64,000 nt of DNA, taken from positions 4,928,001-4,992,000 of the forward strand of contig OZ240248.1 of NCBI GenBank assembly GCA_965198235.1. Reading direction: 5' to 3'. Origin of the DNA: Candidatus Poribacteria bacterium (GTDB lineage Bacteria > Poribacteria > WGA-4E > WGA-3G). Shown in pieces: positions 23,121 through 27,620 of the stretch (its first letter is position 1; each line of letters begins with the position of its first letter). A program made the translations under genes and the position numbers. Under the pieces are notes generated by a model. It worked only from the letters and a program-made list of their open reading frames with translations, had not been told where the DNA came from and made no database searches.

Positions 23121-23390
23121 AATCCTGTTACGTAGAAACTACCCCTATTGAGACCAGACTATCATGGCAACAATTGCAACATGATGGAGTGAGATGGATT
23201 ATCGCGATTCAGGAGAATCGGGGCATCCACTGTTCTTCTTACACGGCACTGGACATTTGCCTTTTTCCGTTCTTGAAAATTTCAGACGCTTGTGATATAC
23301 TATTCAAATCAGTTCGGGTGGGACTACCATGAATCGGCCCCTCACTCCATTCCTGTCACCCTCCCACCATAATCCGCAGAGGAGCGTTTT

Positions 23391-23657
23391 ATGTCAGATC
23401 AAAATAGTCTTGATATATTTGAACTTAAGGAAGATGCTATTCGTCTTCAAGCAAGAATGGAAGAAGTCGATAAAGTTGAATCACGCCTCAGTAACCGGAT
23501 TCAGGAAGTAAAAAACGACCTCAAAGGTGATATTCAAGGTGCCAAGAAGGATATCCATGACAGAATAACTCGATTAGAAACACGCTTGCAGTGGTCTGTA
23601 ACTGTAGCAATAGGTGTCACAGGCATCGTTGTTGCTATAATCGTTAAATTTGTATAG
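23391..23657 (+). CDS. Small coiled-coil protein with a C-terminal TM helix (CCDC90/XhlA-like)
   Basis: GAGGAG RBS; heptad-rich body followed by WSVTVAIGVTGIVVAII. Confidence 0.6.
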   Translation: MSDQNSLDIFELKEDAIRLQARMEEVDKVESRLSNRIQEVKNDLKGDIQGAKKDIHDRITRLETRLQWSVTVAIGVTGIVVAIIVKFV

Positions 23658-23677
23658 TTGGAAAACGGAGATTTACC

Positions 23678-23980
23678 ATGTCAGAAAAACCACAAGGGTT
23701 GCATATATATACACCAACTCGTCTGGAATGGCTTGCAGTGATGTTAAATACGCTTTTTCAGTACGACAATCTCTCATCCGATGGATTCATGTTGTATTAT
23801 ATGGGCTTAAAAGATGGAGAGACTATCCGAATAGTCGTCAGGTATGATGCGAACGTGAATAAATCTCTCATGGAGCAGAAGATTAGGGTCGCCAGAGAAG
23901 CTATTTCAAGATATGCTAAAAATTATGGATGGGAATCATGGATTAAGACTGAAGTAGATATTGAGGAACTCAATCAGTAA
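23678..23980 (+). CDS. Hypothetical protein
   Basis: GGAG RBS, 100 aa, 20 nt after the preceding gene; AT-rich. Confidence 0.55.
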   Translation: MSEKPQGLHIYTPTRLEWLAVMLNTLFQYDNLSSDGFMLYYMGLKDGETIRIVVRYDANVNKSLMEQKIRVAREAISRYAKNYGWESWIKTEVDIEELNQ

Positions 23981-24094
23981 TCAAAGTAAGAGGTATAATG
24001 CCTCACGAAATACGTTGGATTTCACGAGTTCCATTCAATCTACTGACTGGGTACCCTTTGAGGGCACCCAGATACACTCTTTTTCAAAGACTCG

Positions 24095-24934
24095 CTAAGC
24101 TTGTGGAATCTCGACCGGCAGATCCAGCCGGTCTCCCCACTCTTTCCATGAGCCTATGTAGTTGCTCACTTTTGGATAACCCAAGAGCCGCAACGCCAAA
24201 TAGGCTTGGGAAGAGCGGTAGCCCCCCTGTCAGTAGCACATAACCTGTTTGTCGGGTGTAATACCAACGGCTTCATACATCTCCCGGAGTTCGTCAGCAG
24301 GTTTGAAAGCCCCCACTTCGTCAAGATTATTAAGCCATTCAATGTGAATAGAGCTGGGAATAGCACCTGCCCGCTCTGCGCGGGCGACCCTACCGTAGTG
24401 TTCGTCGTCGGTGCGCGTATCAAGCGGGATAAAGTCGCTTCGGTTTAACAGGACGCGAATCACATCAGCATCCATGTGTATATCGTGTTGAGCATTTATC
24501 GGAAAAGGTGGTACCTCCGGTGGTTCAGCCCCCGCTGTACTAATAGGTCCATCTGCCGATAGCCATGCCTTGAAACCACCATCTAATAAACGGGTTTCTG
24601 GATGCCCTAAGTATTCGCAAAACCAAAACCCTCGCGAGGCGCGCGTTCCCGATATGTCTTCATACCATACAATCGGTTTACTCGGATCAAGACCGCGTTG
24701 CTGAAACAGGTATGCTATCATCCACATAAAGGCATCATACGTCTCTTTCCGAGTGTCAATAAGGCTTAAACCGAACAAATCTAAATGAAGAGCACCGGGG
24801 ATGTGTCCTCGAATATATTCATAAGTCGGTCGCGTATCGACGATGCAGAACGTTTGATCGTCGAGTGTGCCTTTCAATTCCTCAGCAGAGATAACCAGTT
24901 GTGGATTTTCGTACCCTTTGTAGGTTTCCATCAT
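24095..24934 (-). CDS. Tandem-domain rhodanese/sulfurtransferase (SseA/TST-like) with in-frame TGA at the catalytic position; putative selenoprotein, 279 aa
   Basis: HIPGA and DTR motifs; read-through of TGA 24232-24230 gives [49 protein letters not shown], then TAG at 24097-24095. Confidence 0.88.
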
Positions 24935-26386: not shown

Positions 26387-27412
26387 TCATTCGGGGGAGG
26401 AAAACCCACTCCTGTTGTTGAAATTCAGACGCGTCAGCACTCTAAAATCAGAGGGTTTCGCATTTTGGCAAAGACGGGGTTTCCCTGACAAAGAATACAA
26501 GGAAATCCCTTGCTTTCCAAAACCAGCAATACGGGTGAGACCATACTTACTGTGTCTCACAAGAGTGTTTTTTATCAAACGACTCCAAGTCGTCCCACCA
26601 TAACGGGGTCTTTCGCCACCTTGCTGTGAGTTCTGACGATGCAGTTGACGTCTGACAATCGGTATCGGTGAAATGCACAGTAAATGCCGGTTGTCTACAA
26701 TAGGTGCACCCCCAACAGTCTCATATGCCAGACACCAACTGTCAACACAATGCGCAGCAAATGTTTCAGAAAGCTTCTTGGAAGATTTCTTCAAACCGAG
26801 GCTCTCACGAATCGCTTTCGTCTGCCATCCCCGGAGTATCAACAACTCCCACCGCTTCTGAATCTCAGCGTAGAACCACTGCTTGCCCACTTCTAACGGA
26901 CTAAAGGACTGATTCCACTTTTTCGCATGTGCTATCGTGCGTGCTTTGATATCCTCAACACAAATATGGGTGATAGGAAACATCTTCGAGAACCAGTCAA
27001 GGATCCGAAGTTTCCACTCCCATCTCACACGTGTTCCCGCAGGAACTCGCTCTCTGTTGGCAAGTCTATTGGGGCGACTTTTGCGGTTCGGACACTTTCG
27101 AGAACGTCTACCTCTCCGCAACTCACGACGCTTCTCGAGCTTCTGACTGACTTTATTATGGGCATCTGCCTGCACATTCAGATACGTATGTGCTTGACTT
27201 TTGACAGTAAAACCTTCTTTCTTACTACCGGGATCTACCCCAACGACGATTTCTTGTTTGTAATCCTTAGACGGATCCACATTCAGCCGCACACAGAAGA
27301 CACCGTTTTTCCAAAAAGGTGTCGCTTTTCCTGATTTTATCCACTTCCCCGCGCGCTGTGGCGTTGTCGGCATCAGTGGATTTTGGTATTTATCGACGAC
27401 CATAACAAACAT
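26387..27412 (-). CDS. isrB: IsrB RNA-guided nickase (RRXRR/PLMP domain, split RuvC, no HNH), 341 aa
   Basis: PLMP; RuvC-I VGVDPG; Arg-rich bridge helix RRELRRGRRSR; RuvC-II CVEDI; RuvC-III HCVD; no HNH between RuvC-II and RuvC-III. Confidence 0.88.
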   Translation of the reverse strand: MFVMVVDKYQNPLMPTTPQRAGKWIKSGKATPFWKNGVFCVRLNVDPSKDYKQEIVVGVDPGSKKEGFTVKSQAHTYLNVQADAHNKVSQKLEKRRELRRGRRSRKCPNRKSRPNRLANRERVPAGTRVRWEWKLRILDWFSKMFPITHICVEDIKARTIAHAKKWNQSFSPLEVGKQWFYAEIQKRWELLILRGWQTKAIRESLGLKKSSKKLSETFAAHCVDSWCLAYETVGGAPIVDNRHLLCISPIPIVRRQLHRQNSQQGGERPRYGGTTWSRLIKNTLVRHSKYGLTRIAGFGKQGISLYSLSGKPRLCQNAKPSDFRVLTRLNFNNRSGFSSPE

Positions 27413-27620
27413 GGTTTGTAAGTTCCCTTTCGGGTTGTATATTGCCCCATCCAGATCACGGTATCCGAGAGGAATCAGACTTGGGGAGCATCCGAAACGT
27501 CGTGCTGGCTGCCACGCCAAGATACTGCGATATTTTACTGTAGAAAACTGTTTTGTCCTATGCAGGGAACGTTTGGCTACGCTATGCATAAGCCCCCGAC
27601 TTCAGTCGGGGGTAGTTGAC
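27413..27620 (-). ncRNA. omegaRNA scaffold (HEARO-like); guide expected from the flank at about 27621-27640
   Basis: About 200 nt of non-coding sequence between the element end and the isrB start, opening with a GC-rich hairpin; this is the canonical position for IscB/IsrB omegaRNA. Confidence 0.7.

Follow-up and report, generated by a model that had tools for sequence, protein, structure and literature searches.

The window, by which we mean the whole stretch of 64,000 nucleotides (nt) analysed here (positions 4,928,001 to 4,992,000 of the forward strand of contig OZ240248.1), comes from a Candidatus Poribacteria bacterium whose genome of 5.17 Mb is assembled in 2 contigs (GCA_965198235.1), and it carries on its minus strand a rhodanese gene with a stop codon inside its active-site loop. 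The open reading frame (ORF), 24934-24230(-), runs from an ATG at 24934 to a TGA at 24232-24230 and encodes 234 amino acids (aa) that end in KQVMCY, and past the TGA the frame goes on for 44 sense codons to a TAG, which gives a read-through product of 279 aa. An original prediction, made from the letters of the window, held that this TGA takes the place of the catalytic cysteine (Cys) and is read as selenocysteine (Sec), that the frame beyond it is clean for 44 codons, and that two hairpins close by are candidate Sec insertion sequence (SECIS) structures. The frame is as it was described; the placing of the TGA and the hairpins are taken up below, together with three RNA elements that we call P1, P2 and H0 (Table 1).

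Table 1. Positions of the rhodanese gene, of the RNA elements within it and of some features elsewhere; positions are those of the window unless a locus or contig is named.
Feature	Position	Strand	Details	Basis
Full-length two-domain rhodanese gene	24095..24934	(-)	predicted Sec at residue 235	read-through, Pfam, alignment to PDB 1e0c
In-frame UGA (U235)	24230..24232	(-)	in loop U-QGGYRS, catalytic-Cys column; Cys233 two residues earlier (C-x-U)	read-through, orthologs, 1e0c alignment
True stop TAG	24095..24097	(-)		sequence and read-through
P1, 5' strand	24211..24218	(-)	CCGCUCUU; starts 11 nt past the UGA, codons Y239-S242	pair counts, folds
P1, 3' strand	24137..24144	(-)	AAGAGUGG; codons K264-W266	pair counts, folds
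66-nt domain closed by P1	24145..24210	(-)	irregular stem, details vary between lineages; holds the CCCAAG/CUUGGG stem	
P2, proposed SelB-binding SECIS hairpin	24113..24133	(-)	GACCGGC-UGGAUCU-GCCGGUC; loop 24126-24120	
Proximal hairpin H0	24210..24231	(-)	GA.AGGGNGG-NUA-CCGCUCUUC, including G and A of the UGA	RNAalifold on short alignment; pair counts
serS upstream of rhodanese orthologs	L043:3-1451, L051:2328-3614, L055:192-1478		abuts or overlaps the rhodanese gene in two of three	
TGAs of five paralogous ORFs	G000:C1: 5038327, 1266554, 1799320, 2837715, 5044898	(+), (-), (+), (+), (+)	loci L146, L157, L143, L150, L148	

An in-frame UGA at the active site of a two-domain rhodanese

The read-through protein contains two stretches of the Pfam family Rhodanese (122.5 bits), and the nearest solved structure by HMMER is RhdA of Azotobacter vinelandii, PDB 1e0c (E 1.7e-38; residues 12-276 against 8-271). 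In this alignment U235, the residue encoded by the TGA, stands opposite the Cys of the RhdA loop HCQTHHRS, which is Cys230 and which we take to be the catalytic residue of that enzyme; the alignment and the column of the orthologs both confirm that the TGA falls on the catalytic Cys.

The TGA is shared far beyond the window. Among the own genome and 40 relatives (n=41) an ortholog with one TGA was found in 36 (65-100% identity), in every one of them in the same column, with the motif [C/S]-Y-TGA-QGGYRSS, while four genomes of family f4 have an ortholog without any stop (55-57% identity) that carries TGT or TGC in that column, C-Y-C-QGGYRSA, and one genome has no ortholog. Further loci, from the best 80 of 118 relatives in a species-representative genome collection, have the TGA in 80 cases out of 80 with the frame open downstream, a recurrence that chance cannot account for. 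A search of the phylum, 176 genomes, gave an ortholog in 155 at E<=1e-60, distributed over the families as 110/111 in f1, 11/11 in f2, 27/29 in f3, 6/7 in f4 and 0/17 in f5-f11, and among the matches listed, all but six of the total, 150 of 150 have one TGA, the families that carry it being the three f1-f3. The alternation of Cys and TGA that the original prediction put forward as a check is thus seen, 36 TGA against 4 TGT or TGC, with a conserved frame downstream. When the window gene is compared with four Sec forms from other families, the 41 codons past the TGA have a dN (nonsynonymous rate) of 0.044-0.067 against a dS (synonymous rate) of 0.54-1.49, a dN/dS of about 0.04-0.10, and are under purifying selection.

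The genome is also equipped for the insertion of Sec. A tRNA-Sec scores 78 bits (cut-off 47) and is called SeC(tca) by ARAGORN, selB (348 bits; G000:C1:3673008-3675162) adjoins the tRNA-Sec gene on the same strand, selA scores 592 bits, and selD scores 360 bits and has one in-frame TGA of its own; tRNA-Sec, SelA, SelB and SelD are all above their curated cut-offs, and the machinery named in the original prediction as something to look for is therefore present.

Because the TGA is conserved and the codons behind it have such a low dN/dS, the less demanding explanations of the interrupted frame can be put aside. A sequencing or assembly error, or a nonsense mutation private to this genome, is excluded, since the same codon stands in the same column of independent assemblies (36/36, 80/80, 150/150 among the matches listed, and 41 metagenome contigs) and is shared by all orthologs read in three families. 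That the TGA is a true stop, giving a protein of 234 aa without the catalytic loop, and that the downstream frame is kept for an RNA element or a small ORF, is the reading of gene callers and public databases, and TGA is otherwise an ordinary stop in this genome, where 488 of the 2293 stop-to-stop ORFs with 300 codons or more are closed by it. We find it hardly credible, however, in view of the dN/dS over 41 downstream codons, of a downstream peptide that makes up the active-site loop and C-terminal helix of a rhodanese and aligns to solved rhodaneses up to residue 276, of the sister family f4 that has Cys for the TGA within one uninterrupted ORF, of an ORF list without any start past the TGA in this frame, and of the complete Sec machinery. 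The comparisons argue that the gene is almost certainly a genuine selenoprotein gene, with UGA read as Sec at the catalytic site.

Judged by homology, the enzyme is an RhdA-like sulfurtransferase. It has the build of the tandem-domain rhodaneses of the RhdA/SseA type, with two domains and an active-site loop in the C-terminal one only, U-QGGY-R-S for C-X4-R-[ST], and in the 1e0c alignment the N-terminal domain has no Cys in the stretch that matches the active-site loop, which is how the inactive half of a tandem rhodanese looks. The division into an N-terminal domain that is inactive and a C-terminal one that is active is common to the protein and RhdA, whereas RhdA has Cys in place of Sec, the loop QTHHR where the window protein has QGGYR, and T-H-C where it has C-Y-U. 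The best NCBIfam match is the equivalog for 3-mercaptopyruvate sulfurtransferase (3-MST), NF008557, with 96.4 bits against a cut-off of 250, and the protein should therefore not be filed as SseA/3-MST. The C-x-U arrangement, here C233-Y234-U235, is common to the protein and NCBIfam NF041203, rhodanese_LYCAU ("form 3", CxU), but NF041203 is a single-domain family of about 126 aa and the window protein scores 35.3 bits against its cut-off of 115. Cys233 is kept in 95 of 98 Sec forms and also in the Cys forms (C-Y-C), and several divergent metagenome forms have Pro instead; a selenenylsulfide between U235 and Cys233 is a possibility. The enzyme presumably carries an Se-S (or Se-Se) adduct in place of a Cys persulfide, and with Sec it would carry sulfur or selenium in a more reactive state than the Cys form does; that it is a selenotransferase, as the original prediction suggested, is a possibility. 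The genome, like most of its relatives, has a second two-domain rhodanese (G000:C1:732631-733458, minus strand), which is 30% identical and has no stop; it is a Cys paralogue and may be the ordinary enzyme of the SseA type.

Public databases record the gene as far as the TGA, and the Poribacteria entries inspected are all fragments of 231-259 aa. In a collection of 5.8 billion proteins the matches of at least 62% identity are, among the matches listed, all 212-259 aa long and cover 76-84% of the query, and full-length proteins appear only at 61% identity or below; eight such clusters bear the NCBI names "rhodanese-like domain-containing protein", "sulfurtransferase" or "hypothetical protein". 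This supports the earlier view that standard annotation cuts a Sec sulfurtransferase short. The same view held that rhodanese-like selenoproteins are known from some bacteria and metagenomes, and rightly: the available text on the Sargasso Sea selenoproteome (2005) gives three genes of a "rhodanese-related sulfurtransferase, COG2897" (PMC1088965), and that of a 2026 review gives five rhodanese selenoprotein forms, among them "form 4 (rhodanese-related sulfurtransferase), UxxG" (PMC13188914). As far as these texts describe them, the COG2897 selenoproteins likewise have two domains, a UGA at the catalytic Cys, U-x-x-G and widespread Cys homologues. The window protein has the form 4 motif in its PF00581 domain as U235-Q-G-G238, an assignment made by the motif as the table of the review defines it, and not by sequence relationship to the published examples (AACY01016424, MCY3690685.1). 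The example accession of the review is absent from the eight NCBI clusters checked, the terms Poribacteria and sponge occur 0 times in PMC13188914, and the passages of that review and of PMC1088965 speak neither of Poribacteria or sponges nor of a distant SECIS. The protein family is thus already known as a selenoprotein, and the arrangement of its RNA signal is the new part.

Paired elements downstream of the UGA

In 98 distinct Sec-form coding sequences (249 codons) the synonymous codon diversity has a gene mean of 0.46 and two cold spots, at codons 234-246 and 264-273. The first holds Y234 TAC (98/98), Q236 CAG (97/98), Y239 TAC (98/98) and S241 TCT (98/98), and the second K264 AAA (96/97), E265 GAG (84/98), R269 CGG (97/97), L270 CTG (98/98), D271 GAT (97/98) and P273 CCG (98/98). 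The four Cys forms vary freely at these synonymous sites, and P1 and P2 are absent from them.

P1 is a helix of 8 base pairs (bp), 24218-24211 with 24144-24137, that closes off 82 nt, and P2, which begins 3 nt past it, has a 7-bp stem and a 7-nt loop. Counted from the UGA onwards, 126 nt of the window sequence fold at -53.2 kcal/mol (z-score -2.91; 1 of 200 shuffles as good; the centroid equals the structure of minimum free energy), and the predicted fold consists of an 11-nt spacer, P1 with an irregular 66-nt stem, a 3-nt linker and P2. The loop of P2 lies 103 nt from the UGA along the RNA, or 21 nt (11 + 3 + 7) if the 82-nt P1 domain is skipped. Folded as single sequences, four Sec forms of f2 and f3 give the same P1 + P2 with z -1.9 to -3.6, and four Cys forms fold without them, with z -0.3 to -1.3.

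Over an alignment of 92 distinct sequences, pairing holds in 93.3% of the cells of the P1/P2 structure, and in 31.5-47.3% if the partners are shifted against each other. Each element shows compensatory change: 24215/24140 in P1 (alignment columns 24-99) is CG in 75 sequences, UA in 14, UG in 3 and unpaired in none, and 24131/24115 in P2 (columns 108-124) is CG in 77, UA in 15 and unpaired in none. Fitch parsimony, on a tree of the coding sequence that precedes the TGA, lets the former change 7 times, with U-A in 4 clades, and the latter twice. The loop of P2 reads UGGAUYU in 90 of the 92, and P2-type stems in the other sequences are of 6-9 bp. Inside P1 the picture is less sharp: the fold of the inner domain is ambiguous, with column 34 pairing with column 54 in 68/92 and with column 87 in 51/92, and its apical loop is unconstrained (synonymous diversity 0.35-0.70 at codons 251-254). 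Searches of the window with Rfam, at gathering thresholds, and with ARAGORN, for tRNAs, gave no match.

Metagenomes extend the comparison. A collection scanned with a 23-letter pattern around the UGA gave 45 loci, in 41 of which a rhodanese C-terminus follows the TGA, the other 4 being unrelated; 38 loci had at least 126 nt downstream, and these represent 33 distinct sequences. Over most of their length 26 of the 33 align with the window protein at 46-97% identity, so that the Cys forms of f4 stand closer to it than some of these do. RNAalifold predicts P1 + P2 de novo from the 33 sequences, and pairing holds in 96.4% of the P1/P2 cells, compared with 37.0-53.1% in slid controls. Changes on both sides are seen at four pairs: 24-99 (CG 25, UA 7, other 1), 27-96 (UA 21, CG 7, UG 2, other 3), 108-124 (UA 17, CG 16) and 109-123 (CG 26, AU 5, other 2). 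Several of the changes are synonymous in both partners, as where an Arg codon goes from CGG to AGG and a Pro codon from CCG to CCU at the same time. The search pattern leaves free P2, the 3' strand of P1 and the covarying columns 24 and 27. On these comparisons P1 and P2 are very probably real, conserved RNA structures.

Both hairpins that the original prediction took for SECIS candidates exist, but neither has a loop and spacing in line with the bacterial SECIS model, nor is either the conserved element. The first, UGA-CA-GGGGGGC-UACC-GCUCUUC, is a variant of H0 specific to the window, two of its seven pairs holding in only 6/92 and 31/92 sequences. The second, CCCAAG/CUUGGG, is partly kept, its five tested pairs being paired in 64-92 of 92 and one of them changed on both sides; it lies within the P1 domain, and an alternative pairing of its bases scores about equally.

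The RNA elements also bear on whether selenium is needed at all, for the UGA might be read through without it, by a near-cognate Trp or Cys tRNA or with Cys in place of Sec, to give a full-length protein that is no selenoenzyme. The sequence evidence is compatible with this, and some systems can put Cys in at Sec codons when selenium is scarce. Yet the codon lies exactly on the catalytic Cys, it has been kept as TGA, and not as TGG or TGY, in more than 150 genomes for which its mutation would be easy, and it is accompanied by a conserved RNA element that is specific to the Sec forms and has a loop like the SECIS loops of the same genome. We therefore think that selenium-free read-through is very unlikely.

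Distance and possible working of the signal

The model of the bacterial SECIS (bSECIS) by Zhang and Gladyshev, as given in the available text of the review, asks for an upper stem of 4-16 bp with 3-9 nt in its apical loop, a G at loop position 1 or 2, mostly followed by G or U, and 16-37 nt from the UGA to the apical loop, and concedes unexplained exceptions (PMC13188914). P2 agrees with the model in its 7-nt loop and 7-bp stem and in its loop UGGAUYU, where G comes second and is followed by G. By the looser published rules i and ii (four pairs and a G at the first or second place of the loop), a hairpin at 16-37 nt was found in 0 of the 92 rhodanese sequences, and one at 95 nt or more in 91 of the 92. 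We also searched with a stricter descriptor (at least 5 contiguous pairs, a 3-9 nt loop starting N?G[G/U], dG, the folding free energy in kcal/mol, <= -4). It picks out a GG[A/U]-loop hairpin, with 18-33 nt from UGA to loop, for 14 of the 18 further selenoprotein candidates in this genome, and in the rhodanese gene P2, at 103 nt and -13.1 kcal/mol, is the only such hairpin within 150 nt. Hairpins of dG <= -8 turn up 0.036 times per stretch in a random sample of 3000 genomic stretches of 150 nt. The hairpin loops behind the UGA of the other selenoprotein genes read GGA, GGU, GGUC or GGUCU, which the GGAU of P2 resembles, and the effective spacing of 21 nt falls within the range of these genes. 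A loose genome-wide regular expression for GGAU-loop hairpins was also tried and gave 206 matches, which was uninformative.

A way in which such a distant hairpin could act may be proposed. In the fdhF SECIS of Escherichia coli a spacing of 11 nt is required, SelB binds a flipped G and U of the SECIS loop, and the ribosome covers about 12-15 nt of mRNA downstream of its A site. P2 would be the SECIS hairpin bound by SelB, and P1 would place it at the mRNA entrance of the ribosome when the UGA is in the A site, at the effective spacing of 21 nt. H0 uses for its 3' arm the very nucleotides that form the 5' strand of P1, and H0 and P1 are therefore mutually exclusive; an approaching ribosome would melt H0 and thereby set this arm, CCGCUCUU, free to form P1. 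A reason for the distance may be that the codons right past the UGA encode the active-site loop and a helix, and could not at the same time encode a local SECIS. We lean towards the view that P2 is a SelB site tethered by P1, and see about an even chance that P1 + P2 represent a new, split or tethered class of bacterial SECIS, in which a SelB hairpin some 100 nt downstream is delivered by a long-range helix that is perhaps formed only once the ribosome has melted H0.

H0 could itself be the working SECIS of the selenoprotein, with P1 and P2 serving mRNA stability, translational pausing or regulation. It is well conserved, 98.3% of its cells being paired across the 92 sequences, and RNAalifold gives it as the consensus hairpin on a short alignment; one of the fixed synonymous sites, Q236 CAG in 97/98, is moreover not explained by P1. 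In the metagenome set, however, Q236 is either CAA or CAG, and the constraint on CAG is therefore not general. No pair of H0 has changed on both sides in the 92 sequences, and the H0 of the window has a G-G mismatch at a pair that is absent in 13 of the 92. Its position speaks against it as well, only 8 nt past the UGA where the model has 16-37 nt, and inside the mRNA channel, by what is known of the ribosome footprint, when the UGA is in the A site. A working H0 also leaves the covariation of P1 and P2 and their specificity to the Sec forms unexplained, and we consider it unlikely that the signal resides there.

Several points do weigh against the tethered P2. Its linear spacing of 103 nt is outside the 16-37 nt of the model, and H0, being conserved too, could be a functional element or part of one. 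The descriptor needs contiguous stems, missed 4 of the 18 other genes, and can therefore miss a bulged canonical SECIS. Since the window sequence was the source of the structure tested, the comparison with the slid controls is biased in its favour, and the 92 sequences include related ones and are not independent. In the metagenomes the search pattern fixed columns 4-26 save for its degenerate letters, including part of the 5' strand of P1, and the invariance there is therefore by construction; two of the metagenome sequences, L177 and L204, break two pairs of P2 in this register, where by eye a shifted hairpin is possible. The whole case, for selenium incorporation as for SelB binding, is one of sequence comparison. 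With all this taken into account, we hold with good confidence that a Sec rhodanese with a P1 + P2 signal is the best explanation of the locus as a whole.

Compared with the canonical bacterial SECIS of the E. coli fdhF type, P2 has a stem and a loop of sizes that the model allows and a loop with G followed by G, and differs in lying 103 nt from the UGA instead of 16-37 nt, with a covarying helix that encloses 82 nt. The archaeal and eukaryotic SECIS elements of the 3' untranslated region (3'-UTR) are likewise distant signals that free the codons beside Sec from RNA constraint, a likeness of working only. The element described here lies inside the coding region and is of the bacterial hairpin type, and its tether is apparently base pairing and not adaptor proteins; no membership in those classes is implied. 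In the literature searched, of which the coverage was partial, we found no natural distant or long-range SECIS of bacteria.

Surroundings, other selenoprotein candidates and significance

The neighbourhood of 120 orthologous loci has no stable functional partner of the rhodanese. MatE lies upstream in 100 of the 120, all of f1, MoeA is found in 72 and an amidohydrolase in 62. A serS gene stands directly upstream on the same strand in one locus each of f2, f3 and f4, the last of these with a Cys form of the rhodanese. SerRS charges tRNA-Sec, which makes the link suggestive, but the adjacency may be inherited gene order.

Between the stop of the rhodanese and the amidohydrolase gene of the window there is about 1 kb (23121-24094) with two small ORFs, 23391-23657 (+) and 23678-23980 (+), which gave no convincing family match and were found in 1 of the 120 loci, their own. 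Here too, 24 nt past the TAG of the rhodanese, is an 11-bp hairpin, CUGGGUGCCCU-CAA-AGGGUACCCAG, at 24047-24071 (-), with no U-tract after it. On the other side of the gene, an ORF of 400 aa at 26387-27589 (-) matches Pfam RRXRR, PF14239, with 109.5 bits and shares 23 nt with the beginning of the MatE gene; none of the 120 orthologous loci has it, and it therefore looks like a recent mobile insertion.

The genome was also scanned for coding ORFs interrupted by TGA, and one filter missed selD and the other the rhodanese itself, so the lists of candidates are incomplete. The selenoprotein candidates at loci L144, L149, L152-L156 and L158-L161 make the genome a rich one, and in nine candidates a Pfam domain spans the TGA, namely two AhpC/TSA proteins, a tandem peroxiredoxin with two Sec codons (1107086, 1106636), the alpha subunit of formate dehydrogenase, two HMA proteins with GMT-U-GAC, a UGSC-family protein and a thioredoxin-dockerin protein; selD is a tenth confirmed candidate, by a TIGR family match. 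By NCBIfam, a WD40/PSCyt1 protein has a C-terminal Sec-HMA domain. Two others are probably false, x1, which has no Pfam match, and x2, which has an HD domain past the TGA; for a third, x3, the DUF4159 match does not span the TGA and it is unconfirmed.

Five paralogous ORFs of 513-580 aa have an in-frame TGA in the conserved motif D-[DE]-[SA]-C-U-x-x-G-K-x-L-R-A and, behind it, hairpins at a spacing of 23-24 nt, three with the loop GGUC and the remaining two with AGGUGA and AGUU. Neither Pfam nor NCBIfam gives a match to the TGA-bearing portion of any of the five, one of which has a C-terminal Redoxin domain, and they may be an undescribed selenoprotein family. With so many selenoproteins in the genome, the use of selenium looks like a notable trait of these symbionts.

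An enzyme of about 150 sponge-symbiont species is recorded in public databases without its catalytic loop, and gene finders based on a SECIS 16-37 nt downstream would miss its signal. The available text on BSepDB gives a canonical SECIS for 87.4% of the bacterial selenoprotein entries and calls the rest unexplained (PMC13326102), and this gene family offers a concrete architecture, supported by covariation, for one non-canonical case. If the tethered SECIS is true, it would account for some of those bacterial selenoprotein genes, about one in eight, in which a canonical SECIS is lacking, it would mean that bacterial SelB acts at a distance, and it would be a plausible intermediate toward the SECIS elements of the 3'-UTR.

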